From contig CBDFGU010000009.1 of the NCBI GenBank assembly GCA_965247335.1, positions 1,328,504 to 1,392,503 of the forward strand: a DNA stretch of 64,000 nucleotides. Reading direction: 5' to 3'. The DNA is from Rickettsiales bacterium. Lineage in GTDB: Bacteria; Pseudomonadota; Alphaproteobacteria; Rickettsiales; UBA3002. The notes below the pieces were generated by a model, which was given only the letters and a program-made list of their open reading frames with translations, was not told the origin of the DNA and did no database searches. Shown here piece by piece: positions 2,757 to 20,880 of the stretch (position 1 is its first letter; each line of letters starts with the position of its first letter). Made by a program: the position numbers and the translations under genes.

Positions 2757-5700
2757 TTATGAATGCTTGAATCGCAGATCAAGCGTGTGCGGAAACTCCG
2801 CATTCTGTTCCATGGCGGGCAATGTCAGTTTGCCGGAAGTATGACCCATCGCTTCGAAACGGGATAATTTCCTGCCTTCCGCCTCGTTTTCATTGACGGG
2901 GAAAGTATCGTAACTGCGTCCACCGGGGTGGATGACATGGTAGGTGCAGCCGCCGAGGGAACGGTTCTGCAGCGTATCGACCAAGTCGAATACCAGCGGC
3001 GCATCAATCGGCAGTTTCGGGTGCAAGCTGGACGATTGTGCCCATGCTTTGAAGCGGACACCAGCCACGTGTTGATCTGCTACACCCGTCGCATGTAATG
3101 GGACGATATGCCCATTACAGGTTACGACATGGCGTTCGTCCATTGGGCCTGCCACCGTTACCTGAAGGCGTTCCACTGTCGCGTCCACCGAGCGGCTAAC
3201 GCCACCGCCTGCAGGTTCTTCACCCATCACCGGCCATGGTTCCAACGCCTGGTGCAACGTTAGTGTGACATCTCCCAATTGCACCTTGCCGGACTGGGAG
3301 AAGCGGAAAGCAAAGAATGGAGTGAACCATTCCGGCGCAAAGGCATAGCCACCTGTTTTCAGCACATGCAATACTTCTGCAAAATCCTGCTCAAGATAGT
3401 AGGGTAGCATGAATTTATCATGCAGCTGGGTGCCCCAGCGTTTCAGTGGATTAGTGTAGGGCGTTTTCCAGAAATGCGCAATGCAGGCGCGGATCAGCAA
3501 ACTTTGCAACAAATTCATTTGCGGATGCGGTGTCATCTCGAAACCACGCATTTCGAGCAGGCCCAGCCGCCCGCGTTCACTATCAGGGCTATAGAGTTTA
3601 TCGATGCAGAATTCCGCACGGTGGGTGTTGCCGGTAAGGTCGACTAACAGGTTGCGTAGGAGGCGATCGACCAGCCACGGTGGTACATCGCCGCTCTCGG
3701 GGATCTGCTGGAACGCGATTTCCAGTTCATACATCGCGTCGTGCCGCGCTTCATCGATGCGCGGTGACTGGCTGGTCGGGCCGATATACATTCCAGCGAA
3801 CAGGTACGAAAGCGATGGGTGGTTCTGCCAGAAACTCACCAGCGAGCGTAACAGATCCGGCCGGCGCAGGAACGGGCTATCCGCGGGAATTGCCGCGCCC
3901 ATTACGATATGGTTGCCGCCACCCGTGCCGACGCGCCTGCCATCCAGCATGAATTTTTCAGCCGATAATCGCGCCAGTCGCGCCTGGGCATAGACTGTAT
4001 CCGTAATGGTTTTAAGTTCTTTCCACGTCGCGGCGGGCTGGATGTTGACCTCGATCACGCCCGGATCGGGCGTTACGGAGAAATTCGCGATCCGCGCGTC
4101 AACCACGGGTGTGTAGCCTTCAAGTACGACCGGAATTTTCAAAGCGCTCGCGACCGATTCGATAGCCGTGATCAACTCCAAGAAATGCTCTGCCCACGCT
4201 ACCGGCGGCAGGAACAGATGCAGTACGCCGCCGCGCACTTCAGCGCAGAGTGCGGAGCGGATGAGACCGTTACTGTCCTTGGCAAATACTTTATCATCCG
4301 CTTTGCTAGGCGCTGAAAATGCTTTTGTTAGCGTTGCATGACTTGGCAGTTTTTCTGGAACATCAAAAGCGCTGCGCTCCGGCACTATCTCTTTTTTTGC
4401 TTCCTTGGGCGAGGGCAGGCTGGCCAGTGGCAGGCGCAAGCCGATGGGTGAATCACCTGTCAGTAGCACGAGATACGGGCTTTTGAATTTCCATGCATTG
4501 CTGATCCAGCGCTGGCGTGTCGGCGAATAATGCAAGGGTAGCACATAGCCCACCGGTGCATTGAGATCCTTTTCCATCAGGGCCTGCAACCGTTCGCGCT
4601 CGGTTTTCTCGTAGACATCCGCCTTCATCATTTCATCGCTTAGGGGCAGCTTGTGTTCTTTCCACAAATAATATGGAGTATCCTCGCGAGCGGGCTGCAC
4701 ATAGGAACCGGGAATGCCCAAGGTTGTCGCTAGCGTAGTAATAAACTTCTCTGCGGTTGCCAGCGTGTGTTTGAGCGAGCCGTCGGGATCTGCCAATAAG
4801 GCGATATCGCGCCAGATTATTTCACCGTCCGTGCGCCAGAAACACGGCATTGCCCAGCGTGGCAGGATCTCGCCGGGATACCATTTGCCTTGCGTGAACA
4901 TCGGCAATCCGCCGGGGGCGAATTGATCGCGTAACCGTGCGGACAGATTTTTCCCGAGCGCTTTTTTCTCGCCGCCCAGTGCAGAGTAATGCCATGCGTC
5001 ATGCTCGCGGTCATCAAGGGATACGAATGTCGGCTCGCCGCCCATGGTGAGCCGTACATCCTGCGTTGCAAGGCTTTTATCTACCTTGGTGCCCAATGCG
5101 TCGATCGCTTTCCATTGCGCATCCGTATAAGGTTTGGTCACGCGGGGTGCTTCGACGATGCGGGTGATGGTCATCTGGTGGTCGAGGGTCGCGGTCACCC
5201 CTTCTTCCAGCGTGCCGGTAACGGGAGCAGCACTCGACGGATTCGGCGTGCAGCAGAGCGGAATATGGCCTTCGCCCGTGAACAAACCCGAAGTAGGGTC
5301 CAGCCCGATCCAGCCGGCGCCGGGCAAATAAATTTCTGTCCAGGCGTGCAGGTCGGTGAAATCGACATCCGTGCCGGAAGGCCCGTCCAGTGATTTTACA
5401 TCCGCCGCGAGCTGGATGAGGTAACCAGAAGCAAAGCGCGTCGCCAAACCCAGATGCCGGATTGCCTGACACAGGAACCATGCCATGTCGCGACAGGAAG
5501 CGCTGCCGCGTTCCAGCGTTTCCTCACAGGTCTGTACCCCGGGTTCGAGGCGCACGACATAGGTGAGGCTCTGGTTTAGTTGCTGATTGATGGAAACGAG
5601 GAAATCGATGATGCCTTGTTCCTTGCGATCGATTTTTTTGAGCCATGCAGCGAGGCCTGAACCTTTTTCCTTAATCTCGAGATACGGTGCCAGTTCATCC

Positions 5701-6032
5701 TTGAGCTCCTGCGTGTAAGCGAAGGGAAAACTCTTGGCGTAATCCTCTAGAAAGAAGTCGAACGGGTTATACGCGCGAATCTCCGTCAATAGGTCCACCT
5801 CGATCCGGAAATCTTTCACCTTGTTCGGAAACACGACCTTGGCCAGAAAATTCCCGAATGGATCCTGCTGCCAGTTGATGAAGTGCTCTTTCGGCTCGAT
5901 CTTGAGGGCGTACGATTGAATGATGCCGCGCGTGTGTGGGGCCGGGCGCAAGCGGATGGTCTGCATCCCGAGCGCGGTCGGCCGGTCGTACCGGTAATGG
6001 GTCAGGTGGTGTAATGCGGCGGTGATACTCAT
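2757..6032 (-). CDS. Large transglutaminase-family protein (N-terminal Bact_transglu_N plus transglutaminase core, DUF2126-type C-terminal region)
   Basis: 1091-aa ORF. N-terminus MSITAALHHLTHYRYDRP...RLRPAPH. Cys-His-Asp core motifs GSASCRDMAWF, DLHAWTEIYLPGAGWIGLDPTSG. The long C-terminal region matches the pattern of DUF2126-type proteins. Confidence 0.85.
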   Translation of the reverse strand: MSITAALHHLTHYRYDRPTALGMQTIRLRPAPHTRGIIQSYALKIEPKEHFINWQQDPFGNFLAKVVFPNKVKDFRIEVDLLTEIRAYNPFDFFLEDYAKSFPFAYTQELKDELAPYLEIKEKGSGLAAWLKKIDRKEQGIIDFLVSINQQLNQSLTYVVRLEPGVQTCEETLERGSASCRDMAWFLCQAIRHLGLATRFASGYLIQLAADVKSLDGPSGTDVDFTDLHAWTEIYLPGAGWIGLDPTSGLFTGEGHIPLCCTPNPSSAAPVTGTLEEGVTATLDHQMTITRIVEAPRVTKPYTDAQWKAIDALGTKVDKSLATQDVRLTMGGEPTFVSLDDREHDAWHYSALGGEKKALGKNLSARLRDQFAPGGLPMFTQGKWYPGEILPRWAMPCFWRTDGEIIWRDIALLADPDGSLKHTLATAEKFITTLATTLGIPGSYVQPAREDTPYYLWKEHKLPLSDEMMKADVYEKTERERLQALMEKDLNAPVGYVLPLHYSPTRQRWISNAWKFKSPYLVLLTGDSPIGLRLPLASLPSPKEAKKEIVPERSAFDVPEKLPSHATLTKAFSAPSKADDKVFAKDSNGLIRSALCAEVRGGVLHLFLPPVAWAEHFLELITAIESVASALKIPVVLEGYTPVVDARIANFSVTPDPGVIEVNIQPAATWKELKTITDTVYAQARLARLSAEKFMLDGRRVGTGGGNHIVMGAAIPADSPFLRRPDLLRSLVSFWQNHPSLSYLFAGMYIGPTSQSPRIDEARHDAMYELEIAFQQIPESGDVPPWLVDRLLRNLLVDLTGNTHRAEFCIDKLYSPDSERGRLGLLEMRGFEMTPHPQMNLLQSLLIRACIAHFWKTPYTNPLKRWGTQLHDKFMLPYYLEQDFAEVLHVLKTGGYAFAPEWFTPFFAFRFSQSGKVQLGDVTLTLHQALEPWPVMGEEPAGGGVSRSVDATVERLQVTVAGPMDERHVVTCNGHIVPLHATGVADQHVAGVRFKAWAQSSSLHPKLPIDAPLVFDLVDTLQNRSLGGCTYHVIHPGGRSYDTFPVNENEAEGRKLSRFEAMGHTSGKLTLPAMEQNAEFPHTLDLRFKHS

Positions 6033-6115
6033 GGTTTTTTATATCCGACTATGAAATACTTGCATAGGCACAGTAAACTACTAGGCTTCGTAAGACATCA
6101 ATATAATCTTTTGCC

Positions 6116-7996
6116 GTGTCGGAGTACTATTTGTTCACGATTCCCCCGCTGACGAGCGATATTCTGGTGTTGAGCCTTGATGGCGAAAGCTCGCCTTCGA
6201 TCAACATCAATTTGTCGCAGAACTACCTTGGTAGCCATTCCCAGGGCTGGGGTTTCGGCTGGTATCCGGGTGACGAACAATCCGCGATGGTTACCAAGGA
6301 TCCTGCCGCACGCAATACACAAGTGCTGATGGATGCGCTGACCGATTGGGCGCATTTCCGTTCGACCGTGTTCTTCTGCAAGGTGCGGGGCGCTAGCAAA
6401 GGCTACAGCCTCAAAGAAACACAGCCTTTTTCCCGCAGTTTCGCCGGCCGTGACTGGTTGTTCATGCATAATGGCGATGTCGACAAGGTCGAACTTGAAA
6501 AGCTGCATGGTAAAAAGAACCGTGTCTTTGAGCCCATCGGTAACACGGATTCGGAACTCGCGTTCTGTAATTTCCTCTCGCTGTTACAGGAGGGTGATAC
6601 ACGCAAACTTTCCGATGTCGCACCCGAGATGTTGCATGCGTGGTGGAAGCGCCTCGATATGCTCGGCAGTGCCGATATGACGCTTTCGGATGGCGATAGC
6701 GTGGTCTGCTTCCATGGCACCCAATCGCCGAAGGCCATGTACTATATGCGAATCCAGCCACCAGATAATCAGGAATTGTACATTGCCGATGCCGCGCAGA
6801 TCAGCCTCAGCAACCCACGCGATACCTACCGTACTGCGCTGATGGTGACGTCCATGCCCTTCGCTTCGGGTAACTGGTTCGAAATGCTGCCGGGGCAAAT
6901 GATCATTGCGCGTCGCGGCACGATCGTCTGGGACAGTGCGCATGGGCATGCAAAACAGGTTACACTGGCAATTCCGCATGCCGTGCAACCGCAGGCACAG
7001 CAACCTGTAGTGCTGCAACCCAACTTCATGGCGCAGGCGCAGGCCGAGCAGTCGCAGGAGCATGTGCTCAACGCACGGGCGATGTCGCAGACACCGGAAG
7101 GTGCACCGCTGGCGTATCGCGTATTCGAAGTGAAACATACAACGCATTATGAATACAGCGAACCGGTGGAGCACAGTACGCATGTGTTCCGCCTGCAGCC
7201 GACGGACGATCCAATCCAAGAAGTCGTTTCGTCGAAACTGGCGATTTCGTCCGTTTCCGAGGAGATTTTGTTCGAGGATGTATTCGGCAACCAGGCGATT
7301 CACTGTATCATTGATAAGTCCTATACCCAGCTGACGGTGGAGGCTACCAGCCGGGTCAAGATTTTCGCCGCGCCACCGGATGATCATAGTCTGTCACGCC
7401 GCCGTACCTCGATTCCACTCGCCTGGATGCCATGGCAACGCCAGATGATGATGCCGTATCTGCTACCGGCGGAGTTGCCCGAATCGCAACTCACGGAACT
7501 GACCGAGTATGCGATGAGTTTCGTCAAGCGAAACGATTACAATCTGCTCAAGACGCTCGAGGACATGAATGTCAGCATTTATCGCGATTATAAATACGTG
7601 TCGGGCAGTACTTCCATTAATACGACCCCCTTTGAGGTCTACACGTCACGTAACGGCGTGTGTCAGGATTTTGCCAACCTTCTGATCTGCCTTACCCGAC
7701 TTCTAAGTATTCCGGCGCGTTACCGCATGGGTTACATCTACACTGGCGCCAGCTATTCTAATAAAATCCAGTCAGATGCTTCGCATGCATGGGCGGAAGT
7801 CTATTTGCCGTATGTCGGCTGGCGCGGTTTTGATCCGACCAATGGCTGCATGGTGACGCAGGATCATATCCGTGTCGCATGCGGCCGTAATTATGGCGAT
7901 GCGACACCGACCTCTGGGACTATTTATAAAGGCGGCGGTACAGAAACATTGACAGTTGATGTGAAAATGACGGAAATCGTGGATGCATTGACATAA
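6116..7996 (+). CDS. Fusion protein: class-II (Ntn) glutamine-amidotransferase-like domain (YafJ-like) plus Bact_transglu_N plus transglutaminase core
   Basis: GTG start, with an in-frame TAA 12 nt upstream. N-terminal ~290 aa carry YafJ-type motifs ([31 protein letters not shown]). A Q/A-rich linker follows, then [11 protein letters not shown]...FRLQP and a Cys-His-Asp core ([32 protein letters not shown]). Confidence 0.8.
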
Positions 7997-8012: not shown

Positions 8013-9479
8013 ATGCATTTTAAAGGCTACGACTGCGATGGGTTCTATGACGAACTGATCATGCCGGATGGTTCGCCACGGCCCGAGGCCTTGCCGCTCA
8101 TCGAACATGTTAATGCGCTTTCACTCAAGGGTCTACACCGGCGGCAGAAAGCATCCGAACATGCACTTTACCAGCAAGGCATCACGTTCAACGTCTACGG
8201 TGACAAGAAGGGTACCGAAAAAATCTTCCCGTTCGATATCCTGCCCCGCATCATTCCTGCCCATGAATGGGAGCTGCTGGAACGCGGCATGAAACAACGC
8301 ATCAAGGCGCTCAACCTGTTCATCAACGATATTTACAATGAGCAAAAAATTCTGAAGGACAAGATCATCCCGCGTGCCCTCGTGCTTTCATCCGAATGTT
8401 ACCTCAAGCAGTGCAAAGGCCTCACTCCACCTCAGGGCATCTGGATCCATGTTACCGGCACCGACCTCGTACGTGATAGCAGCGGCCAATTCTATGTGCT
8501 CGAGGATAATCTGCGCTGCCCGTCCGGTATTTCGTATGTACTGCAGAATCGCTCTATCCAGAAGCGCATCATGCCGAGGGCGTTCCAAGCCATGCTCACG
8601 CGTCCGGTTTCCGACTATGGCGACCATCTGTATGAAACGCTGCGCCATATCGCACCCAAAGGTGTCGATAATCCGAATGTCATTGTGCTGACACCTGGTA
8701 TTTATAACGCTGCCTATTATGAGCACAGCTTCCTTGCCCAGCAGATGGGTGTGCCGTTGGCACAGGGGTCCGACCTGACCATTATCGATGACCATGTCAT
8801 GCTGCGAACAACCCGCGGCTTCGAGAAGGTCGATGTGATCTACCGCCGCATCGACGATGCGTTCCTCGATCCCAAAGTTTTCAACAAGGATTCATTGCTT
8901 GGCGTACCCGGCATCATGGAATGCTATCGCAAAGGGAATGTCGCATTGGCCAATGCACCGGGTACCGGCATTGCCGATGACAAGGCGATCTATGCATATG
9001 TGCCGAAGATCATCAAATATTACCTCGGTGAGGATCCGCTCATCGAAAATGTGCCGACCTATATCTGCAATGATGAAAAGGATCGGAGCTACGTACTTGC
9101 CAACCTCAAATCGCTCGTTGTGAAAGCGGTCAATCTTTCCGGGGGTTATGGTATGCTGATCGGTCCGAAATCCACCGCCAAGGAGCGTGAGGAGTTCGCC
9201 CAACGCATCAAGGCCAATCCGCGCGATTACATCGCGCAGCCAACGCTCGCCCTGTCGCGCACGCCGACCATCATCGACGATACCATCGAAGGTCGCCATA
9301 TCGATTTCCGCCCCTATATCCTTTACGGTAAATCCATCTTCGTGCTACCCGGCGGCCTTACGCGCGTCGCACTAAAAAAAGGTTCGCTTGTCGTTAATTC
9401 TTCGCAAGGCGGCGGTAGCAAGGATACCTGGGTACTGGGCACGGATGAGCGCAGCATGGAGGAAATTCTCAATGCTTAG
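8013..9479 (+). CDS. Circularly permuted ATP-grasp protein, type 2 (DUF404/DUF407 family)
   Basis: 488-aa ORF starting 16 nt after the preceding gene. Sequence pattern typical of this family (YDELxxPDGxPRP..., [47 protein letters not shown]). Stop overlaps the start of the alpha-E gene. Confidence 0.85.
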
Positions 9480-10422
9480 CCGCGTTGCCAGTTCGATCTA
9501 TTGGATGAGCCGCTACCTGGAGCGCGCCGATAATGTTGCACGCTTCATCGATGTCAACGCGACATTGATCCTCGACATGGGTTGGGAAAAAGACGAAGCG
9601 CAATGGGCGCCCATGGTCCAGGCCTCCGGCGACGAAACGGATTTCGATAAACGCTATAAACATTACACCGAGAAAAACGTCGTTCGCTTCCTCACGTTTG
9701 ACAATAAAAACTACAATTCCATCCTGAATTGCGTGCAGAGCGCCCGCGAGAATGCGCGGACGGTACGCGAGATCATTTCTTCCGAAATGTGGGAGACCAT
9801 CAACGAACTCTACCATCTCGTGGAAAAACATAACCGCAAACGCGAAATTGGTGATCTGCAGCCTTTCTTCAGAGCGGTACATCGTGCAAACCATCATTTC
9901 ATCGGTCTCGTTGAGAATGTCATGTCGCATGGTGAAGGCTGGCACTGGGCGCGCATTGGCCGCCTGCTTGAGCGCGCTGATAAGACTGCACGCATGCTGG
10001 ACGTAAAATATTTCCTCCTGCTGCCAAAGGGCGAACATGTTGATTCTCCGTATGATGCCGTCGAATGGGGTGCGGTACTGAAATCCGTTAGTGGTTTTGA
10101 GATGTATCGCAAACAATTTCATCGCGCCAATTACCACGATGTCGTTCAGTTTCTGGTGCTCGATCCAAACTTCCCGCGGGCCATCCGCCATTGCATCCGC
10201 ACCGCAGCGGATTCGCTGGCGACGATCAGTGCTATGCTGGAAGTCGCCGTGCCCGCTACGGAAGAAATGCAAAAACTAAAGGCTTCGCTTGATGATTGTG
10301 ACACCAGCGGTATCCTGACCACTGGTCTGCATGAGTTCATCGACATCTTCCAGTTCAACCTGAACATTGTCGATCGTTCATTGTACCACTCATTTTTTGC
10401 TGTGGAGCAAACTGGCAGTTAA
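9472..10422 (+). CDS. Alpha-E domain protein (DUF403 family)
   Basis: N-terminus [21 protein letters not shown] is the canonical alpha-E start. ATG 9472 overlaps the ATP-grasp stop (ATGCTTAG). The ORF-track start at 9388 lies inside the upstream gene and is rejected. Confidence 0.85.
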
Positions 10423-10574: not shown

Positions 10575-11705
10575 CTATATATCAAAGATTGTGCGCAAGG
10601 CGCTGGCTACTCGCTTGATATCTGCCTCTTTCAGACATAAGGCGCTAGGCAAATTGATCGCCTTTTTCGAGAGCAGATACGACACGGGTGCGCGTTTGGC
10701 GGATTGCGGAGTGTGCATATGATCATACGCCGCAAGTGCGCTGAGCGGCTCGAAAAAGGGGCGTGAGGCAATGCCATGCTCGCCAAGCGCGGCAATAAGC
10801 GCAGTCTTTTCCATACGATGTGGTTTGTCCCACACTAGCGTGCTCATCCAGTAGCTATTCTCGACATCTTTATGAGCGGGGTTAAGACTGAAGCCGGTGA
10901 TGCCGGCTAAGTGTTTTTCGTACCAGGCGAAGATCTGGCGCTTCTTTTTCACCAGCATATCGATACGTTCCAGTTGTGCCAGCCCCAGTGCCGCCTGCAA
11001 CGCCGACATTTTGTACTTATGCGCAACTTCAAGATTGCGGAAAAGGATGTCACCCGGGGCGCGGCCATGATCGCGCAGTTGCAGGCAGCGCTGGTAGATT
11101 TTCGGATCGTCCGTCGCCAGCATGCCGCCTTCACCGGTGGTAAGTGTTTTGCTACCGTGGAAACTGAAGCAACTGGTGATGCCGAAGGAGCCCGCAAGCT
11201 TGCCTTTATAGCGCGAGCCGATGGCCTCGGCCGCATCTTCGATGACGGCGATGCTGTAGGCTTTAGCGAGCTTCAGGATAGGTGCCCATTCTGGCATGTG
11301 GCCATAAAGATCGACCACGATGATGGCCTTGGTTTTTTTCGTAATGCGTGCTTCGATGGTCGCGGCAGAGAGGCACCATGTTGCGGCATCGATATCCGCG
11401 AATACAGGCGCTGCGCCGACATAGCTGATGGGGGCAGAACTGGCGATCCAGGTCGCATCAGGAACGATCACTTCATCACCCGCGCCGATACCGAGCGCCA
11501 TGAGGCTGAGATGCAGCGCCGAGGTGCAGGAAGGTAAGGAGATGGCGTATTTGCGACCGGTGAATTTGGCGAACGCCGCCTCGAATCGCGCCGGGTAATC
11601 ATTGGCGTGATCGTACCATCCGTTCTTCGCGGCATCGGTAACGTAAGCCACTTCCTTCGCAGTGATGGACGGCCCGGCTACGGGCAAGCGCTTTACTTCA
11701 GGCAT
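10575..11705 (-). CDS. DegT/DnrJ/EryC1/StrS-family PLP-dependent sugar aminotransferase
   Basis: 376 aa. Motifs SCTSALHLSL, VPDATW, and the PLP-lysine context FSFHGSKTLTTGEGGM. Lys is retained, so this is an aminotransferase rather than an E1-type dehydrase. Last gene of the minus-strand sugar operon. Confidence 0.85.
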   Translation of the reverse strand: MPEVKRLPVAGPSITAKEVAYVTDAAKNGWYDHANDYPARFEAAFAKFTGRKYAISLPSCTSALHLSLMALGIGAGDEVIVPDATWIASSAPISYVGAAPVFADIDAATWCLSAATIEARITKKTKAIIVVDLYGHMPEWAPILKLAKAYSIAVIEDAAEAIGSRYKGKLAGSFGITSCFSFHGSKTLTTGEGGMLATDDPKIYQRCLQLRDHGRAPGDILFRNLEVAHKYKMSALQAALGLAQLERIDMLVKKKRQIFAWYEKHLAGITGFSLNPAHKDVENSYWMSTLVWDKPHRMEKTALIAALGEHGIASRPFFEPLSALAAYDHMHTPQSAKRAPVSYLLSKKAINLPSALCLKEADIKRVASALRTIFDI

Positions 11706-12433
11706 TCGAGATATCCATCACGCGCGACGGTAAAGACGAGCTTGTCGTGGATCGCTTGATCGATACGGAAGCGATCGGTGTTTTTCAGAAATGCATGGAC
11801 GGCCGTTTTCGGGTTATCGCCGGGCCCCCAGGGGCGGTCGGGGAATGCATCATCCGGCATATCATCGATGCTAGTATCCATCACGACAAGGTAACAGCCC
11901 GCGCTAACGAGCGGTGCATAGAGTTGAAGCTCTGCGGCGACATGTTCGTGGGTGTGGTTGGAGTCGAGAATGACCATGACACTACTATCTCGCGGGATCA
12001 GCGCAATAACTTCCTTAAGCGTCGACGCTTCAGTAGACGAGCCTTCTACCAGCGCGATGCGGTGGGCCAACGGATGCGCCTCGATCGCAGCACGGTTGTG
12101 CGCCCGGATATCGATATCGACCCCGATGACCTTGCCGGGTTTGTTCAGCAATTGAAGAATCGAGGCGCTGAGTACGAGTGAACCGCCGCGTGCAACACCA
12201 GTCTCAATAATGACATCAGGCTTGGTGCGCCAGATAGTCTCCTGCATGGCGACGATATCCTGCGGTAGTTGGATGATCGGCAGGCCGAGCCAGTCGAAAT
12301 GGTAGGTATAGCGCGCGATACCCGCTTCCTTCATGAATTCGCGGTTGATTGTATCGAGCGCGGGTCTCTGCTGCCCACCCATCCTTGTGATTTCCGCGGC
12401 ACGCTCGCGCTCGAATTGTTCAATATCGCTCAT
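11693..12433 (-). CDS. CmcI / cephalosporin-hydroxylase-family class I SAM-dependent methyltransferase (sugar O-methyltransferase-like)
   Basis: Pattern YTYHFDWLGLPIIQLPQDIVAMQE...KPDVIIETGVARGGS...DSNHTHEHV is typical of the CmcI family. Start taken at ATG 12433 (MSDIEQF...); an upstream ATG at 12481 is possible. Overlaps both neighbours. Confidence 0.75.
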   Translation of the reverse strand: MSDIEQFERERAAEITRMGGQQRPALDTINREFMKEAGIARYTYHFDWLGLPIIQLPQDIVAMQETIWRTKPDVIIETGVARGGSLVLSASILQLLNKPGKVIGVDIDIRAHNRAAIEAHPLAHRIALVEGSSTEASTLKEVIALIPRDSSVMVILDSNHTHEHVAAELQLYAPLVSAGCYLVVMDTSIDDMPDDAFPDRPWGPGDNPKTAVHAFLKNTDRFRIDQAIHDKLVFTVARDGYLECLK

Positions 12434-13133
12434 GGAAGGCCCTCCAGGGGATAGTCGGTGAGATGAGGTAGTAGTTAGCATGCGCCGTGCCGACGCTTGC
12501 CAGCAAGGTTAAGACAGTCACATAGGGATTGAAAGCGCCAAATTTCTGCGGGTATTCTGGCAGCGCGTAATCGATATACTCGGTGGCGATACCATGACGC
12601 TCGAGCAGTTCATGATCGAGGTAGTTCTTCGCGCCATGGCCGGTGATGTAGATGGTGCCGCCGATCGCGGAAACGACCTGCTGCACTTTCTCGCTCGCTT
12701 GCGCCGTGATGCCCATACCGCTGGAACGCACGAAACGCGGGGTGAAGCCCATCAGGTGCGCTAGTTGCTCGAACAGAGCAATGTTGAGTGCGGCGAGGGA
12801 ATCGTAAGATGCGAGGATGGTAGGCGTGATAGCCGTGAGGACTGCATCTATGTGCGGCAGGCTGGCAAGCGTCTGTTTTAGAGCGGCGAGATGCTTTTCT
12901 TGCCAGCGTTTCGTCATATCGAATTTGGTTTGCAGCATGGTCTCGCCCGAGCGATGGATGGCGGGCACCGTGAGCCAGCTGAAACCTTCGGGCGTTTTTA
13001 TCTGCACACGGTTGAGGAATCCGCCCTTGGTGAATTGCGCATCGTCGTAATGCACGAAGACATCGGCGTGCCGCAACTGGTCGAACAGCCCTTGCCACGG
13101 CAGGTACATTGGCTGTGAGAAGACGACCCGCAC
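12420..13133 (-). CDS. WbqC-family protein (function unknown, polysaccharide loci)
   Basis: N-terminus MRVVFSQPMYLPWQGLFDQL and the length (237 aa) resemble WbqC-like proteins. Located between acetyltransferase and methyltransferase genes. Confidence 0.65.
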   Translation of the reverse strand: MRVVFSQPMYLPWQGLFDQLRHADVFVHYDDAQFTKGGFLNRVQIKTPEGFSWLTVPAIHRSGETMLQTKFDMTKRWQEKHLAALKQTLASLPHIDAVLTAITPTILASYDSLAALNIALFEQLAHLMGFTPRFVRSSGMGITAQASEKVQQVVSAIGGTIYITGHGAKNYLDHELLERHGIATEYIDYALPEYPQKFGAFNPYVTVLTLLASVGTAHANYYLISPTIPWRAFHERY

Positions 13134-13139
13134 GCGCGG

Positions 13140-13817
13140 TTACCAGTTGAAGAATTCGTCGGCACCGCGCGACGATTTGGGGGTCTGCTCAGTAACGAAG
13201 GCATCGCCGGGCGCAGTATCGCGCTTGATGTAGGAATGGGCGCCGACCAGCGTGCGCTCGGCGAGTTCCACCCCATCCATGATGGTGGCGTTGCTACCGA
13301 TAAAGCAGCGCTCGCCCACCACATTGTGCCCGCACAGCACGGCGTGGTTGGCGATGAAGACATGGTCATGGATTACCGAATCATGCCCGATGCTGTTGCC
13401 ACGGCTGAGAATGACGCCGTTACCAATGGCGACGTTGGGCTGCAGGCAGTTGTCGTCGAACACAAACACGTTCTTGCCGATACGAAGATCCTTCCAGCGA
13501 CTGGTATTGGAACAGATGTGGCTGATGAGCGTATAGCCTTTGGTTTCTGCACTAGTAACGAAATCCTGTCGCATGGCATTCATATCGGCGTAACCCATGG
13601 CAACGAACATAGCGAAATCCTGTGGCGGGTAGGCCGTCGTGACATTTTCGAAGGAGACGATAGGCCTGCCGTTGAACTCGCTTACATTGTTGGTGTCGAG
13701 CCAATGCTGACTGGCGGCGTAGACAGCGACTTGATGGTCGCTGTCGTTGGTGAGGTAGAAATCCACCATGCGTCCCATATCCGACGTGCCGAAGATGATC
13801 ACTGGTTTGCTAGTCAT
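13140..13817 (-). CDS. Hexapeptide-repeat (left-handed beta-helix) sugar N-acetyltransferase, NeuD/PglD-like
   Basis: N-terminal Rossmann-like KPVIIFGTSDMGRMV, followed by repeated [LIV]G-x4 hexapeptide turns (IGKNVFV, IGNGVIL, IGHDSVI, IANHAVL, VGERCFIGSNATI). ATG 13817 forms an ATGA overlap with the upstream gene stop. Confidence 0.8.
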   Translation of the reverse strand: MTSKPVIIFGTSDMGRMVDFYLTNDSDHQVAVYAASQHWLDTNNVSEFNGRPIVSFENVTTAYPPQDFAMFVAMGYADMNAMRQDFVTSAETKGYTLISHICSNTSRWKDLRIGKNVFVFDDNCLQPNVAIGNGVILSRGNSIGHDSVIHDHVFIANHAVLCGHNVVGERCFIGSNATIMDGVELAERTLVGAHSYIKRDTAPGDAFVTEQTPKSSRGADEFFNW

Positions 13818-14959
13818 TCGAACCCATAACTGAAGGTGAGGGGAAGGGCTTTCCATGCATCGATCTGTGAAATGATGTGGCGGCCCGTGCGCGGGTTGAG
13901 GGCGACGAGGATATAGCGCACATCGGATGGGAGATCGGCAGGGGCGATGACCGGGAGTTTCATGTGCATGGTGCCTTGCAGGAATTTATTCTGGTCGATG
14001 AAGCAACGCACGTTGATGGATGGATCGAGATGTAATTTAGCGTAGGTGCCGTAGAAGCCTGCGCCATAAATGGCAACATCATCGCTGACGCTGAGCTTTT
14101 TAAGCCGCTGTGTGATGCGGCTCCAGTAAGTGGCGATATCCTTGCTTTCACGCGTGGTCGCGGCGACTTCAGTCGGGGTGGGCAAGACGCTTCCATTCTT
14201 CGCGTTTTTAGTGGCGCTGACGAACCACCAGCCGGGCTGCGTCGTGTTATCGAGCGCAATGTCGATGAAGCCGGTGCTGGCGAGTGACTGGCGTAAAGAG
14301 CATGCGGTGAAATGGTTGATATGGTCGAATACCAGCAGGTCCGCGACGTTAGTGTGGAAATTGGGCACGATGAAAAAGAGAGTGCCGCCATTTTTCAACA
14401 GGCGATGTTGCGCAGCAAAGGCTTCCATTGGCGCTGCCACATGTTCAAGGCAAAAGAAGGAACTGACGACATCCATCGTACCGCTCCACGCAGCGGGAAG
14501 AGTATGAAGCGATTGGTTCTCTGATGGAATAACGCCTTGCCAGAAAGGCTGGTAATTCGCGCTGACATCGAAAGTGAAGGGGGTAATGGCGGCACGCTTG
14601 ATAAGTTTCTTCAACGTCTGCGCTTTGGCGCAGCCGTAATCCAGCAGGCGCATGCCGGGCTTAAGTGGAATGCGTTTTGTGAGCATGTCGGCTTGAAAGT
14701 CGGAACGGAAGATCTTTTCGCCCTTGACGATCTTCAATAACTGATCCTCGTCCTCGCTACTGGTGAGGATATTGTAACGCTTATCATAGAAATCCGCGAC
14801 ATTGGCGAAAGGCGCGGTGAGCGTGTGTCCGCAGGTGAGACAACTGGCAATTTCCGTCTCTTCGCCTTGCGGTATACCGAGCGAATTGATGGCGCGCGCA
14901 TCGAGTTTGTAGATGATGTCGAGATCCGTCGAAGCGCAGATGTTGCAAGCCATGTCCAT
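13814..14959 (-). CDS. Zn-ribbon-containing class I SAM-dependent methyltransferase with extra C-terminal domain (C-methyltransferase-like architecture)
   Basis: CNIC...CLTCGH zinc-ribbon pair at the N-terminus. SAM motif I LLDYGCAKAQ, then GGTLFFIVPN. A C-terminal alpha/beta-like region (VAIYGAGFYG) follows. Start overlaps the PhyH stop (TAATG). Confidence 0.7.
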   Translation of the reverse strand: MDMACNICASTDLDIIYKLDARAINSLGIPQGEETEIASCLTCGHTLTAPFANVADFYDKRYNILTSSEDEDQLLKIVKGEKIFRSDFQADMLTKRIPLKPGMRLLDYGCAKAQTLKKLIKRAAITPFTFDVSANYQPFWQGVIPSENQSLHTLPAAWSGTMDVVSSFFCLEHVAAPMEAFAAQHRLLKNGGTLFFIVPNFHTNVADLLVFDHINHFTACSLRQSLASTGFIDIALDNTTQPGWWFVSATKNAKNGSVLPTPTEVAATTRESKDIATYWSRITQRLKKLSVSDDVAIYGAGFYGTYAKLHLDPSINVRCFIDQNKFLQGTMHMKLPVIAPADLPSDVRYILVALNPRTGRHIISQIDAWKALPLTFSYGFE

Positions 14960-15795
14960 TATTTCTTCACCACTTTATCGGGGAAGAATTTCTCCGGGCG
15001 GTTGCCTTGGCCAAGATTAACCGGCCAACCGAGCGCGCGTGCTTCGTTGTTCTCGAAATTGAAATAGCGCAATTGCATCGTCCAGCGCGCACGGCTGGAA
15101 TGGTTGAAACCGGAGCGGTGGAGCGTCAGGAAATCAAGCACCAGCAAGTCTCCCGCATTGCAGAGCAGGGCTTGCGGTGAATAGCGGTTGATGACTGCAG
15201 CTTCATCGGCAAGGCGCATAGTGTAGGCGGTAGGTTTCTCAGGGTCGGTCTCATAGGCGATGGGCACGAAGCCTTCCTTGTGCGATCCGGGGCAGACTTC
15301 GAGTGGGCCGATATCGGCGGTGATAGTGACGAGCGGCGACCAGAATACCAGACCATCGATACTGCCGAGCTGTGTCGGGTATTCCTGGTGCCATGGCGAC
15401 ATGAATTTTTTCTCGGACGGGTAGTCGATACGTATACCGTCGCCGCCGCGATTGATGCCGATGGAGGCAGTATTGCGCAAAGCCTGCGCCAATTCGACAT
15501 TCTTCATGCCGGAGGTAATGCGCATGAATTCGGGGATCTGTTTCACCGCGTCGTAGACGATGCTGCCGAGCTTACGGTCATGCTTGACCATGGCCATGTA
15601 GGATGTTTGAAAAATGTCACTGTCGAAGTCGTGGCTAGGAAGTGACTCGCCGAGATGGTGCTCGTGGAGGCTGCCGACGATGGCGACAATATGCACTTTC
15701 AGGGGGGCCAGTTCTGCCGCACTGTAGAAACCGGCAAAGCGCGTAAATCCTTGCGTTTCCAATTCCGCTTTGTGTGTGCCGAGTGCCGGTGCCAT
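14959..15795 (-). CDS. Phytanoyl-CoA dioxygenase (PhyH)-family Fe(II)/2-oxoglutarate-dependent oxygenase
   Basis: 278 aa. Motifs GFTRFAGF, SPWHQEYP...D (HxD/E facial-triad region), LTLHRSGFNHSSRARW (distal His plus 2OG Arg). First gene of the minus-strand sugar operon. Confidence 0.75.
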   Translation of the reverse strand: MAPALGTHKAELETQGFTRFAGFYSAAELAPLKVHIVAIVGSLHEHHLGESLPSHDFDSDIFQTSYMAMVKHDRKLGSIVYDAVKQIPEFMRITSGMKNVELAQALRNTASIGINRGGDGIRIDYPSEKKFMSPWHQEYPTQLGSIDGLVFWSPLVTITADIGPLEVCPGSHKEGFVPIAYETDPEKPTAYTMRLADEAAVINRYSPQALLCNAGDLLVLDFLTLHRSGFNHSSRARWTMQLRYFNFENNEARALGWPVNLGQGNRPEKFFPDKVVKK

Positions 15796-15862
15796 GCGAA
15801 TACACTTTACCTTGTTGCGTGAAGGGAACTATATCAAATAACACCATAAGTGAAAGCAGCTT

Positions 15863-16390
15863 ATGCATTTTAGGCCTTTATCGCTGGGCGGCGCCTGGCA
15901 CATCGAGCTGACGCCTGTGCAGGATGCAAGGGGTAGCTTCACGCGCGTGTTTGATGCGGCAAAGTTCGCTGAACGCAAGCTGGTGACGCATTTCCCGCAG
16001 CAATCCGTCTCAACGAACACCAAGCAAGGCACCTTACGCGGTATGCATTACCAGATAGCGCCGCACGGCGAGGTAAAGCTGGTGCGTTGCAGCCATGGCG
16101 CAATCCAGGATGTGCTGGTCGACTTGCGTGAAGGCTCGCCGAGCTATTTGCAGCATGTGAGTGTGGTGTTAAGCGCGAAAACGCCGTCGATGTTATATGT
16201 GCCGGAGGGCATCGCGCATGGGTTCATGACGTTAGAAGATGATACTGTAGTCGAGTACCATATCAGCACGGATTACGTGGCTGAAACCCAGCGCGGTCTG
16301 CGGTGGAATGACCCGAAGCTGCGTATTTATTGGCAAGGCGAGGTGAAAGTGATTTCCGAGCGTGATGCCGGATTCGCAATGCTAGGCTAA
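15863..16390 (+). CDS. RmlC-like cupin, NDP-4-keto-6-deoxyhexose 3,5- (or 3- or 5-) epimerase family
   Basis: Motifs DARGSFTRVF, LRGMHYQ, KLVRCSHGAIQDVLVDLR, GIAHGF, YHISTDY match dTDP-4-dehydrorhamnose 3,5-epimerase-type enzymes. Confidence 0.8.
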   Translation: MHFRPLSLGGAWHIELTPVQDARGSFTRVFDAAKFAERKLVTHFPQQSVSTNTKQGTLRGMHYQIAPHGEVKLVRCSHGAIQDVLVDLREGSPSYLQHVSVVLSAKTPSMLYVPEGIAHGFMTLEDDTVVEYHISTDYVAETQRGLRWNDPKLRIYWQGEVKVISERDAGFAMLG

Positions 16391-17614
16391 GTGAACATTC
16401 GGCACGGCAATGAGGAATTGACCGTCCCACTCACGAATCTCCACCATTTGCTGCATCACTTCTGGCGCAATATTCCATGGCAGGATGAACACGACGTCGG
16501 GCTTATCCAGCAGGAGGAACGCGGGATCATAGATAGGCAGGTGGCTCCCGGGCAACAGGCAGCCTTGCTTTTGTGGGTTGCGATCGACCGTGTAGGAAAT
16601 GATATTGGGCGTGATGCCGCAATAATTGAGCAGGGTGTTGCCCTTCGCTGGCGCACCGTAGGCGACGATTTTTTTGCCCGCGGCACGAAGTTTTTCAAGC
16701 TGGGCGAGAAGTTCGGTTTTTAACTGACACACGCTCGCCCCGAAAGCCTGATAGGGCGCGAGCGTTTTGAGGCCGAAATCCGTTTCCAGCTTCAGCATGG
16801 CAGCAACGCCGGGTGTCGCTTGATGGCCCGCATGCTGCAGGAATACGCGCAGCGAACCGCCATGGGTTGGCAGGGTCTCGACATCGACCATCGCAAGCCC
16901 ATGCCTGGTAAAAAGCGGCTCAAGCGCGGTGAGGGACAGGTAGGAGAAATGCTCGTGATAGATCGTGTCGAACTGCATATGTTGCAGCATTTTTACGAGG
17001 TGCGGAAACTCGAAGGTGATGGTGCCCTCGGGCTTGAGCAGGACTTTGAAGCCGCCAATGAAATCATGGATATCCGGCACATGGGCGAGCACGTTATTGG
17101 CGGCGATGAGGTCCGCTTGGATACCTTCGCTGACGAGGTTCTGTGCGGTTTCGACCCCGAAAAATAACGCGCGGGTGGGGATGCCGGCAGCATTGGCCAG
17201 CGCGGTGATATTCTGCGCCGGTTCGATGCCGAGCACCGGCACACCGGCCTTTTGGAAGGGGATGAGCAGCGTGCCGTCATTGCTGGCGATCTCGACCACG
17301 AGCGAGTCTTTTCCTAAGTGAAAGCGCTCGACCATGGATCTGGCATAGGCATTGCAGTGTGTTTTCCATGTATCAGAAAAGGAGGAGAGATAGGCGTAGT
17401 TGCTGAAGATGTTCTCAGGCGTTTCGACAGGCGGAACCTGTACTAGCCAGCACGAAGTGCACACATAGGCATGCAGTGGGTAGCGCTCTTCGCGCAGTAT
17501 GTCATCGGTGGATTTTAGGTAGCTGTTGGCGAGCGGCTGCTGGCCAAGGTCGACAACGCTTTGCGTCAGCGCTTGGTTGCAGGCGGCGCAGGATAAAGCG
17601 GGTTTGCCAGTCAT
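16382..17614 (-). CDS. NDP-hexose C-methyltransferase (TylC3-like: Zn-binding N-domain, SAM methyltransferase, C-methyltransferase C-terminal domain)
   Basis: CAAC...CTSC zinc motif, YLSSFSDTW, SAM motif VVEIASNDG, NVLAHVPD, and a C-terminal Rossmann-like KIVAYGAPAKGNTLLNY. 3' end overlaps the epimerase gene by 9 nt (convergent). Confidence 0.8.
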   Translation of the reverse strand: MTGKPALSCAACNQALTQSVVDLGQQPLANSYLKSTDDILREERYPLHAYVCTSCWLVQVPPVETPENIFSNYAYLSSFSDTWKTHCNAYARSMVERFHLGKDSLVVEIASNDGTLLIPFQKAGVPVLGIEPAQNITALANAAGIPTRALFFGVETAQNLVSEGIQADLIAANNVLAHVPDIHDFIGGFKVLLKPEGTITFEFPHLVKMLQHMQFDTIYHEHFSYLSLTALEPLFTRHGLAMVDVETLPTHGGSLRVFLQHAGHQATPGVAAMLKLETDFGLKTLAPYQAFGASVCQLKTELLAQLEKLRAAGKKIVAYGAPAKGNTLLNYCGITPNIISYTVDRNPQKQGCLLPGSHLPIYDPAFLLLDKPDVVFILPWNIAPEVMQQMVEIREWDGQFLIAVPNVHLA

Positions 17615-17696
17615 CGTGCCACCAGAAAATGTTTCCTAAACGGGTAATTAGAGCTATACGAAGAGCAACAGTAACAGGCCAGCAAAAAGAGGATCT

Positions 17697-18551
17697 ATGG
17701 TCACGGAAGCGGTCATTTTATGCGGCGGACTCGGTACGCGATTGCGCGAAGAGACGGAATTCCGCCCCAAACCGATGGTCAATATCGGCGGTAAGCCAAT
17801 CCTGTGGCATATCATGCGGCGCTATTCGGCGTTCGGGGTAAAACGCTTCATCCTGTGTCTTGGTTACAAAGGCGATTACATCCGCGATTACTTCCTGAAT
17901 TACCGTTATCACCATGCCGATTTCACCGTGCGCCTCGCCAGTGGTGAGGTGTTTCTCGACCGCCGCACGGAGATGGAGGACTGGGAAGTGGTGTTGGCCG
18001 AAACGGGCGAGAACACGCTCACCGGTTCACGCATCGCCCGCGCCTTGCCGCATGTGCAAGGCAAAAGTTTCTACGCGACCTATGGCGACGGCGTGGCGGA
18101 TGTCGATATTGCTGCATTGCTGAAGCATCATGAAAAGAACGGTAAGGTAGCAACGCTGACCGCAGTACTGCCACCTTCGCGTTTTGGTGAAATCGCAACA
18201 ACGGACGGTGTGGTTGAATTCTTTGCCGAAAAGCCGCAAGTGGCGAGTGGTGCCATCAATGGCGGCTTCATGGTGCTCGAAAAAGCGGCGATGCAATCCT
18301 ATCTGCCAGCGGACCCCATTGCCCATAGTGATTGCTCGCTTGAGGGTGACGTGATGATGAAGCTTGCCGCGGATAAACAACTCGCAGCTTACGAACATCC
18401 CGGCTTCTGGCAGTGCATGGATACGCACCGCGAAATGGAGCTGCTCAACGGAATCTACCAGCAAGGAAATGCGCCATGGCTGATGCAGAACGGGATCTAT
18501 CTTTCTGGCGCGGCAAACGTGTCCTCGTCACCGGCCAAAGCGGGTTCATAG
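17697..18551 (+). CDS. rfbF: Glucose-1-phosphate cytidylyltransferase
   Basis: N-terminus AVILCGGLGTRLREETEFRPKPMVNIGGKPILWHIM and the rest of the sequence match RfbF/DdhA-type enzymes. The ORF continues ~25 aa past the usual ...APW end and overlaps rfbG by 76 nt. Confidence 0.9.
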   Translation: MVTEAVILCGGLGTRLREETEFRPKPMVNIGGKPILWHIMRRYSAFGVKRFILCLGYKGDYIRDYFLNYRYHHADFTVRLASGEVFLDRRTEMEDWEVVLAETGENTLTGSRIARALPHVQGKSFYATYGDGVADVDIAALLKHHEKNGKVATLTAVLPPSRFGEIATTDGVVEFFAEKPQVASGAINGGFMVLEKAAMQSYLPADPIAHSDCSLEGDVMMKLAADKQLAAYEHPGFWQCMDTHREMELLNGIYQQGNAPWLMQNGIYLSGAANVSSSPAKAGS

Positions 18552-19549
18552 GTAGCTGGTTAAGCCTATGGTTGGCGCGCCTTGGAGCCGAAGTGGCAGG
18601 ATATGCGCTCGCACCGCATACGACGCCGTCGCTATATGCGGATGCAGGTATCGCGGAAAAAATCAGCGCTACGACGGCTGACATTTGCGACCGTGATACG
18701 TTGAAGAAAACTATTGCTGTGCACGGGCCGGAGATTGTCATCCATCTCGCAGCGCAGGCCATCGTCGGCCGCGCACATGCGGATGCATTCGAGACATGGC
18801 GCGCCAATGCGCTGGGCACTGTTGCGTTGCTTGAAGCATTGCGCGGCCAACATCTCAAGGCGCTGAGCATTTTTACTACCGACAAAGTCTATGATAACCA
18901 TGGAACGGGTCACCCGCATCGCGAGGATGATCCAATCGGTGGGTTTGGCATCTATGATGCTAGCAAGGGCGCGACGGAACTGGCGGTGCGTGCGTTCATG
19001 CATGGTAATGCGGTTACTCCAGGCACTGCCATCATTCGTGCGGGTAATGTTGTCGGCGGCGGTGACTGGAACGAGGCGCGCCTATTGCCGGATTGTGCAC
19101 GGGCCTTCGCAGAGAAACAACCTGTTAAGCTGCGCCACCCGCAAAGCGTACGCCCGTGGCAGCATGTGCTGGATGTGTGCTATGCGACGCTACGATTGAC
19201 GCAAGCGCTATACGATACGCCGCAGCAATTCCGTGGTGCATGGAACATCGGCCCCGACCCGGAGAACATCCTGAGCGCCAGCGCAGTCGCTGAGCGAATG
19301 GGGGCGCATTGGCAGCAGCATCCGGCGTGGGTGCCGACAGCGGATGCGGCACAGTATCCGGAAGCGAATGTGCTGCTGCTCGATTCAGCCAAGTTGATGC
19401 AGGCTCTGAACTGGAAACCTATACTCGGCATCGAGGAAACATTGCAGTGGACGGCGCAATGGTATCGTGACTTTGATGCGCAGCCGGGTGAGGCGCTCGC
19501 CATTACCGCCGCCCAGATCGATGCATTTGAACAAAAGGCCATTATATGA
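18476..19549 (+). CDS. rfbG: CDP-glucose 4,6-dehydratase
   Basis: FWRGKRVLVTGQSGFIGSWLSLWL NAD-binding start, SDR catalytic YDASK, and a C-terminus typical of RfbG/DdhB. Start taken at ATG 18476 (MADAERDLSFW). Confidence 0.9.
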   Translation: MADAERDLSFWRGKRVLVTGQSGFIGSWLSLWLARLGAEVAGYALAPHTTPSLYADAGIAEKISATTADICDRDTLKKTIAVHGPEIVIHLAAQAIVGRAHADAFETWRANALGTVALLEALRGQHLKALSIFTTDKVYDNHGTGHPHREDDPIGGFGIYDASKGATELAVRAFMHGNAVTPGTAIIRAGNVVGGGDWNEARLLPDCARAFAEKQPVKLRHPQSVRPWQHVLDVCYATLRLTQALYDTPQQFRGAWNIGPDPENILSASAVAERMGAHWQQHPAWVPTADAAQYPEANVLLLDSAKLMQALNWKPILGIEETLQWTAQWYRDFDAQPGEALAITAAQIDAFEQKAII

Positions 19550-20841: not shown

Positions 20842-20880
20842 CACGCTCTGGGTTTAACCATTTCAGCGCGGACAGCATAT

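Follow-up and report, generated by a model that had tools for sequence, protein, structure and literature searches.

Class-II glutamine amidotransferases (GATs; MEROPS family C44) are defined by a Cys nucleophile (PMC9140057). A gene on the + strand of a 64,000-nt stretch of DNA from a Rickettsiales bacterium (GCA_965247335.1, contig CBDFGU010000009.1; the whole stretch is referred to as the window) encodes a class-II GAT-like domain that lacks this cysteine and is fused to a transglutaminase-like module. The locus raises the question of which residue has taken the place of the cysteine, and what a GAT fold without its nucleophile could be doing at the front of a transglutaminase. The fusion gene is followed by genes for a circularly permuted ATP-grasp (cpATP-grasp) ligase and an Alpha-E protein; operons combining ATP-grasp, Alpha-E and transglutaminase genes, with or without Anbu, are widespread and are predicted to form a peptide-ligation or tagging system with no known substrate or product (PMC6376114; PMC5666114). 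An earlier note on this DNA had located the replacement at residue 2 of a 626-aa open reading frame (ORF) opening with GTG at 6116. Residues are numbered here from TTG 6131, the most likely start (621 aa), except where long-ORF numbering (from GTG 6116; +5) is indicated.

Pfam matches to the protein, in long-ORF numbering, comprise GATase_4 (PF13230) at residues 16-280 (E=1.5e-46), Bact_transglu_N at 338-414 and Transglut_core at 488-574 (1e-17 and 2e-17 for the two transglutaminase matches), and the motifs GWGFGWY, ETQPFSR, FMHNGDV and GNTDSELAF are all present in the ORF. An AlphaFold2 (AF2) model built on 53 homologues has pLDDT values of 80-95 across the N-domain. When the model was compared with the PDB using Foldseek, this domain matched PA1307 (1TE5; E=5e-15, TM 0.80 normalised to the target), and EgtC (4ZFJ/K/L), SPO2029 (3MDN), PurF (1GPH, 1AO0) and beta-lactam synthetase (1JGT, 1M1Z and others) were also recovered, with E-values for the 1TE5, EgtC and PurF matches ranging from 5e-15 to 1e-6. 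Pfam, AF2 and Foldseek thus agree on a domain with the αββα sandwich of N-terminal nucleophile (Ntn) class-II amidotransferases, covering residues 9 to ~270 (6155..6940, +), and the YafJ-type assignment made in the earlier note is borne out. Within this fold class the domain is YafJ/EgtC-like; it scores 41.4 bits against the EgtC equivalog model TIGR03442, for which the NCBIfam cutoff is 218.65. Every match was to a class-II GAT, and none of the penicillin G acylase type was found by sequence or fold.

The C-terminal part of the protein (Bact_transglu_N plus Transglut_core; 7127..7837, +) is a transglutaminase-like cysteine protease module, as had been noted, and matches the Cytophaga transglutaminase-like protease 3ISR in Foldseek (E=9e-14). 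Both transglutaminase-superfamily domains are accompanied by a Cys-His-Asp triad, formed by Cys511 (7661-7663), His552 (7784-7786) and Asp568 (7832-7834), that is invariant in 53 sequences, and the module is accordingly predicted to be a catalytically competent thiol enzyme. Between the two modules lies a disordered, Gln/Pro/Ala-rich linker (residues 271-326; 6941..7108, +) containing 15% Gln, compared to 4.6% in the rest of the protein. The linker averages 57 residues in 53 orthologues, in which a QAEQ[AST]Q motif is semi-conserved; in the AF2 model, pLDDT falls below 50 for its residues 282-314. Placed between a domain with a Gln pocket and a transglutaminase, such a Gln-rich tether could serve as a substrate in cis or be autoinhibitory.

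The residue in place of the cysteine and the start of the gene

Four independent alignments place Ser9 (codon AGC, 6155..6157, +; Ser14 in long-ORF numbering) opposite the catalytic Cys1 of class-II amidotransferases. In the Pfam register, the canonical Met1 occupies profile position 1 and residue 16 (long-ORF numbering) occupies position 4, which puts the Cys at position 2 on residue 14. When 34 diverse fused N-domains and 47 canonical ones, the latter being stand-alone GATase_4 representatives, were aligned jointly using MAFFT, the canonical M-C-E-L (47/47, 47/47, 44/47 and 47/47, respectively) lay over T8-S9-D10-I11 of the window. Profile-profile alignment using hhalign, for which the fused and canonical sets were aligned separately, likewise puts T8-S9-D10-I11 on M1-C2-E3-L4 (probability 100%, E=1.4e-83), and a hidden Markov model of the fused clade compared with 1TE5 reads 'l-s-e-l-L-a-l-S' opposite 'M-C-E-L-L-G-M-S'. 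Judged from these alignments, the cysteine equivalent is Ser9, and the catalytic Cys in first position that characterizes class-II GATs and family C44 is absent from the protein.

The earlier note had paired MSEYYLFT...TSDI with MCELLGMS...PTDI and concluded that Ser2 of the long ORF is homologous to Cys2. The cysteine instead lies 12 residues away from that serine, the fold begins elsewhere than had been assumed, and T-S-D-I-L aligns with M-C-E-L-L, such that the proposed pairing reflects a chance resemblance of TSDI to PTDI combined with a five-codon over-extension of the ORF. The ORF itself (6116..7996, +; 626 aa from GTG) and the in-frame TAA at 6104-6106 upstream of it are present as described. 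However, the gene most likely starts five codons past GTG 6116, at TTG 6131, giving a coding sequence of 621 aa plus stop (6131..7996, +). Nearly all of the 120 closest database homologues, among the matches listed, begin with Met-Phe at the residue homologous to Leu6 of the long ORF, and the gene call on a sister metagenome contig (L001; 99.7% identical to the window, not 100%) uses the homologous TTG, yielding 621 aa. The closest species-level loci (L057, L003, L002, L004, L023), examined as stop-to-stop ORFs, have no start codon other than the homologue of TTG 6131; when the frame is extended upstream in L057, L003, L023 and L002, a stop is reached after a few codons at most or immediately ahead of the start.

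The DNA upstream of the start is consistent with the same conclusion. In an alignment of seven loci, the T/GTG start is invariant and is preceded by (A)GGAG at a distance of 5-8 nt (7/7 loci), the window having the Shine-Dalgarno sequence GGAG at 6121..6124 (+), 6 nt upstream of TTG 6131. This element falls inside codons 2-3 of the long ORF, GTG 6116 has no Shine-Dalgarno sequence of its own, and the alignment 5' of the Shine-Dalgarno sequence looks like non-coding DNA. Between the window and L001 there is a single SNP in the five disputed codons and it is non-synonymous (Y>C), while SNPs in the coding sequence are synonymous in 14 of 16 cases, a pattern that weakly favours the TTG start in a supporting role. 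Because orthologues, the Shine-Dalgarno sequence and an independent gene call all put the start at TTG 6131, the five-codon extension GTG-S-E-Y-Y (6116..6130, +), with its 'Ser2', is most probably untranslated and part of the 5' untranslated region. That translation begins at GTG 6116, that Met is excised and that Ser2 becomes the N-terminal nucleophile, as had been proposed, is consequently very improbable: between the in-frame TAA and GTG 6116 there is indeed no other start codon and the likeness of MSEYYLFT to MCELLGMS is real at the surface, but the orthologues L057, L003, L002, L004 and L023 have no start codon there, and the idea depends on both the over-extended start and the mis-registered alignment.

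In the window, Ser9 is preceded by an eight-residue leader, MFTIPPLT (6131..6154, +), which is conserved as MF.IPPLT in the window's clade. Phe at residue 2 blocks Met excision owing to the specificity of MetAP. With Phe in this position and eight residues ahead of it, Ser9 cannot be exposed by Met excision, and to become an N-terminus it would need proteolytic or autocatalytic removal of the leader.

Loss of the cysteine across the fused family

We examined how far the fusion and the loss of Cys extend beyond the window by scanning one genome per species. A full-length fusion was found in at least 80 species, the best-matching 80 loci all encode it, and the architecture is present in 120/120 close homologues among the matches listed; the layout, which the earlier note had regarded as unusual, is conserved and recurrent. 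Carriers include Alphaproteobacteria (Kiloniella, Asticcacaulis, Algimonas, Hyphomonas, Sneathiella), Gammaproteobacteria (Legionellales, Coxiellaceae, Francisellaceae, Steroidobacteraceae), Myxococcota, Nitrospinota, Planctomycetota, Actinomycetota, Melainabacteria-type cyanobacteria and Chlamydiota.

In the 78 species loci with a resolved N-terminus (L001 excluded), the nucleophile position is occupied by Ser (56), Thr (9), Gly (7), Asn (3) or, once each, Ala, Arg and Gln, and never by Cys; nor does any of these loci have an upstream start that would restore one. Similarly, none of ~141 fused proteins drawn from a 50%-clustered protein library has Cys at this position, while all 47 stand-alone canonical representatives start with Met-Cys. 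The library matches that contain the Cys are all stand-alone or carry non-transglutaminase extensions, and the transglutaminase-fused ones are all without it. A check of long Cys-containing GATase_4 proteins (350-565 aa) for a hidden transglutaminase domain found none. In a neighbour-joining tree (without bootstrap), one branch parts the fused from the canonical set. The absence of the nucleophilic Cys, correctly recognized in the earlier note, therefore characterizes an entire, widespread family of bacterial proteins.

The placement of the nucleophile position relative to the N-terminus differs between the two sets as well. Canonical proteins always have one residue before it, whereas fused proteins have 1, 2, 4, 5, 8, 13, 20 or 27; the leader is exactly eight residues long in 91 of the ~141 fused proteins and in the window's clade. 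In five Myxococcota loci (L053, L060, L063, L068, L069), the position is Thr and follows a long leader that ends in (R)EHQx just before it, the nearest upstream in-frame starts being ~8-23 residues away, and 27 residues in the called protein P0126. Its sequence differs from MF.IPPLT and makes it a second leader conserved within a particular lineage.

In addition, at least about seven lineages that keep the full fusion and its operon have a residue at the site that is not a nucleophile: Gly in Nitrospina and in a Legionella, Pro in the MPNLL clade, whose genes sit in an operon of ATP-grasp, Alpha-E and the fusion, and Asn, Ala, Arg or Gln elsewhere. Apparent mega-fusions of DUF2126 to the GATase domain (P0234, 811 aa, and long ORFs in L051 and L071) were rejected. 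P0234 is a frameshift-like gene call with Arg-rich segments that look out of frame, and the ORFs in L051 and L071 are high-GC and out of frame, these loci having two genes in different frames with the fusion gene starting M-S-E-L right after the DUF2126 stop.

The remaining pocket and its possible role

The substrate network of class-II GATs consists of Arg, Asn-Gly-Glu and Asp together with Cys1, as described for human ASNS (PMC6748925). In the window the corresponding pocket is formed by Arg86, His113-Asn114-Gly115-Asp116 and Thr139-Asp140-Ser141-Glu142, and both the oxyanion-hole Asn-Gly and the substrate-binding Arg and Asp are in place. To compare the two sets, residues were counted in the canonical proteins and in 81 fused loci (L001 included). 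Arg86 (6386..6388, +), the equivalent of the substrate-carboxylate-binding Arg, is found in 47/81 fused loci and 47/47 canonical proteins. For the HNG equivalent of the oxyanion-hole motif (His113-Asn114-Gly115; 6467..6475, +), the fused counts are 79/81 for His, 53/81 for Asn and 81/81 for Gly, compared to 47, 46 and 47 of 47 canonical proteins. In the TDSE motif (Thr139-Asp140-Ser141-Glu142; 6545..6556, +), the Asp of which is the equivalent of the substrate alpha-amino binder, Asp is kept in 79/81 and Glu in 81/81 fused loci. The equivalents of Gly115, Glu142, Asp140, His113, Asn114 and Arg86 are each present in 46-47 of the 47 canonical proteins; in the fused loci His113, Gly115 and T139-D140-S141-E142 are near-invariant, but Asn114 and Arg86 are not.

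Arg86 co-varies with the residue at the nucleophile position: it is present in 45/65 species with Ser or Thr and in 0/13 others (p=2.6e-6, Fisher's exact test, not corrected for phylogeny, with ~7 independent lineages). This co-variation indicates that Ser9 belongs to a functional site under selection and is not a neutral relic. It bears on the view that the GATase-like domain has become a scaffold or oligomerisation module with an unused pocket, its motifs serving only to maintain the αββα fold. Such a view would accommodate the erosion of the active-site Cys, Arg and Asn in divergent members, as well as the presence of GWG, QPF and the Glu of TDSE in canonical and fused sets alike, which may make them fold determinants, and the full-length AF2 model (pTM 0.76) suggests a defined inter-domain arrangement. 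Set against the co-variation and a surface pocket (D140/S141, H113) that is near-invariant across phyla, however, we consider a purely structural role improbable.

The pocket is also kept where no nucleophile is left. Nitrospinota, with Gly at the site, keep N114, G115 and D140, and Nitrospina still has S141 and E142 as well, which argues that the pocket is maintained without a nucleophile; judging from such sequences, the loss of Ser/Thr is tolerated by the system as a whole. The best-supported reading, at a probability of roughly 0.52, is that the N-domain is a non-catalytic pseudo-amidotransferase module that recognizes Gln or γ-glutamyl groups in the service of the fused transglutaminase. 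Cys is absent family-wide while it is absolutely kept in canonical relatives, N-terminal placement is relaxed, the operon-retaining lineages described above carry a non-nucleophile, and Asn114 and Arg86 are eroded relative to ~100% in canonical proteins. The Nitrospina pocket and the Ser/Thr-Arg86 co-variation, the latter marking a selected site, point in the same direction. There is also precedent for class-II GAT folds without Cys in beta-lactam synthetase, which is among the Foldseek matches. The N-module descends from a γ-glutamyl/glutamine amidohydrolase of the YafJ/EgtC-type class-II (Ntn) group; it has lost the thiol nucleophile, with Ser9 in place of Cys, and is capped in the window's lineage by the eight-residue leader. 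In this proposal, it would no longer hydrolyse amides and would survive for recognition, the retained pocket (Ser9 included) binding glutamine or a γ-glutamyl-type amide, plausibly one that the neighbouring ATP-grasp/DUF2126 ligases make or use. The module would then present the bound moiety to the transglutaminase active site, to which the flexible Gln-rich linker tethers it, or would gate that site. The data establish the fold, the architecture, the absence of Cys, the register of Ser9, the conservation of the pocket and the synteny; from these we infer the identity of the ligand, the lack of hydrolysis and the hand-over to the transglutaminase.

Several observations weigh against this proposal. 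The site holds Ser or Thr, either of which could be an Ntn nucleophile, in 65/78 species across phyla, in fusions that are only ~42-70% identical to that of the window, and this conservation exceeds what a requirement for a small residue would predict. In ~25 species the Ser/Thr is at position 2, immediately after the start codon and exactly where active enzymes have Cys, an example being Actinomycetota proteins that start M-S-E-L-L and have canonical H84, R86, N114 and D140. The full canonical set (S/T, R86, H113, N114 and D140) is complete in 31/78 species, the window among them. The lineage-specific conserved leaders (MF.IPPLT, and (R)EHQxT in Myxococcota) are as expected if they fit an autoprocessing site, and the binding function of the pocket is itself putative.

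The same observations would suit a Ser/Thr Ntn hydrolase, in which MFTIPPLT would be removed either by the fused transglutaminase-type protease or autocatalytically, via an N-to-O acyl shift. Ser9, thereby exposed, would be the nucleophile, its own alpha-amine would serve as base, and the enzyme would hydrolyse a γ-glutamyl/Gln-type amide from the ATP-grasp system, in a role like that of Anbu in related operons. Short, autocatalytically cleaved propeptides are known in class-II GATs (PMC9140057), and B. subtilis PurF is one of the structural matches. Related operons moreover hold an Ntn-fold partner, Anbu (PMC6376114). Exposure would occur by Met excision in lineages starting Met-Ser or Met-Thr and by leader autoprocessing in proteins of the window's type, and the enzyme would act on γ-glutamyl or isopeptide amides formed by the cpATP-grasp/DUF2126 ligases, cleaving or remodelling them as a fused counterpart of the transglutaminase-Anbu pair. 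No enzyme of the class-II GAT fold with a Ser/Thr nucleophile is known, however (PMC9140057, Table 1). As shown by the Gly, Pro, Asn, Ala, Arg or Gln found in ~7 operon-retaining lineages, the system can do without a nucleophile. A third of species, several of the Met-Ser lineages with N114K among them, have lost the oxyanion Asn, and leader length is unconstrained (1-27 residues). Furthermore, Cys-to-Ser swaps in Ntn enzymes generally abolish activity. We regard a hydrolase as the main alternative but as less likely than not, and it is correspondingly doubtful, though less so than a structural relic, that the fused clade constitutes the first class-II-GAT-fold Ntn hydrolase with a Ser/Thr hydroxyl nucleophile, working in tandem with a tethered transglutaminase. 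The earlier note had offered both a pseudo-enzyme and a Ser nucleophile; both readings stay live, with Ser9 taking the place of the Ser2 to which they had been tied.

Neighbouring genes and relation to known systems

Directly downstream of the fusion gene and on the same strand are the other two members of the predicted operon, such that cpATP-grasp, Alpha-E and transglutaminase genes occur together. The cpATP-grasp ligase gene (8013..9479, +; Pfam CP_ATPgrasp_2, E=2e-164) begins 16 nt after the fusion gene, and the Alpha-E gene (9472..10422, +; Pfam Alpha-E, E=1.6e-91) begins within it, its start overlapping the ATP-grasp stop by 8 nt, an overlap suggestive of translational coupling. A mechanical ORF for Alpha-E runs from TTG 9388 (344 aa); ATG 9472 (316 aa) is the start that agrees with the L001 gene call and with where the Pfam match begins. 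On the other side, a divergent gene (2757..6032, - strand) encodes a 1091-aa protein with a transglutaminase N-region and core followed by DUF2126, a putative amidoligase, as identified using Pfam. The Bact_transglu_N and Transglut_core domains of this protein show apparent Cys/His/Asp motifs (SASCRD, DLHAWTE, GLDPTSG), and the locus therefore comprises two transglutaminase-type modules and two putative amidoligases.

The intergenic region between the two divergent genes (6033-6130) contains a block, CTACTA[GT]GCT, followed ~14 nt later by TATAAT (6102-6107), and both are conserved in most aligned orthologous loci. Because a sigma-70 promoter scan of 5950-6250 gave no match, TATAAT is not claimed as a promoter; the CTACTA[GT]GCT block may belong to a control region shared by the divergent genes, as an operator or as a non-canonical -35 element.

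To determine which neighbours recur, genes within 6 kb of the fusion were surveyed in the 81 loci. The cpATP-grasp and Alpha-E genes are both present in 53/81, and DUF2126 is nearby or adjacent in 58/81. Clustering the flanking ORFs of 80 loci revealed no other recurrent neighbour, such as Anbu, and only antisense shadow ORFs recur. Since the fusion adjoins these partners and no others, a functional linkage is likely, and the two-module protein belongs to the predicted cpATP-grasp/Alpha-E/transglutaminase/DUF2126 peptide-ligase system. Further downstream in the window (~10575-21500) is an O-antigen-like sugar-modification cluster that appears unrelated to the fusion protein; its members include a DegT/EryC1 aminotransferase, a CmcI-type methyltransferase, WbqC, a hexapeptide acyltransferase, several SAM methyltransferases, PhyH, a dTDP-sugar isomerase and a nucleotidyltransferase.

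Each part of the fusion has a known counterpart. With YafJ, PA1307 and EgtC-type GATase_4 proteins, the N-domain shares the Ntn αββα fold, collinearity over ~260 residues (hhalign E=1e-83) and the motifs GWG, (N/E)T(H/Q)PF, HNG, TDSE and SDG. It differs from them in replacing the canonical Met-Cys start with a leader and Ser, in its attached transglutaminase and in never having Cys; moreover, the window's clade has Lys, Glu and Gln where they have the invariant His84, Asn96 and His98, respectively. The stand-alone transglutaminase-like protein encoded in cpATP-grasp/Alpha-E(/Anbu) operons (for example in Cytophaga hutchinsonii, 3ISR) has the same architecture, triad and partners as the C-terminal 295 residues of the fusion (PMC6376114). 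Relative to that protein, the fusion adds an N-terminal GAT-like domain of ~270 residues and a Gln-rich linker of ~57 residues.

A class-II GAT fold without Cys1 in a multidomain protein is likewise seen in the N-domain of beta-lactam and carbapenam synthetases (AsnB homologues). This domain is inactive in beta-lactam synthetase, where it is not a glutaminase. The Cys-less domain therefore has a precedent, although beta-lactam synthetase has an adenylating synthetase as partner, is AsnB-like and not YafJ-like, and shows neither a Ser/Thr bias nor a leader. B. subtilis PurF resembles the fusion in having a short N-terminal leader before the nucleophile (PMC9140057); in PurF the leader is cleaved and Cys1 exposed, whereas the fusion has Ser behind an encoded leader. 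Anbu (ancestral beta-subunit), a Thr1 Ntn hydrolase, provides an Ntn-fold protein coupled to the same three partners, and no hydrolase activity could be demonstrated for it (PMC6376114). It is of the proteasome type, is encoded by a separate gene, forms a dodecameric ring and keeps its Thr1. As no Anbu-like neighbour recurs in 80 fusion loci, the GAT-like domain may occupy a slot analogous to that of Anbu.

A full-text search of the literature returned no description of the fusion or of its Cys loss, and an earlier mention is possible. In databases these proteins bear automatic names such as 'class II glutamine amidotransferase' and 'transglutaminase-like putative cysteine protease/predicted glutamine amidotransferase'. 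Hundreds are annotated under the first of these and none has the catalytic Cys, such that the name predicts a chemistry that is almost certainly lacking. A retained Gln/γ-glutamyl-type pocket covalently tied to a transglutaminase would point to Gln or γ-glutamyl amide linkages as the bonds that the system handles, and the fusion protein would be a convenient bait for finding the ligand. If the Ser/Thr were instead catalytic, nucleophile plasticity would extend to the one Ntn subfamily held to be strictly Cys-dependent.

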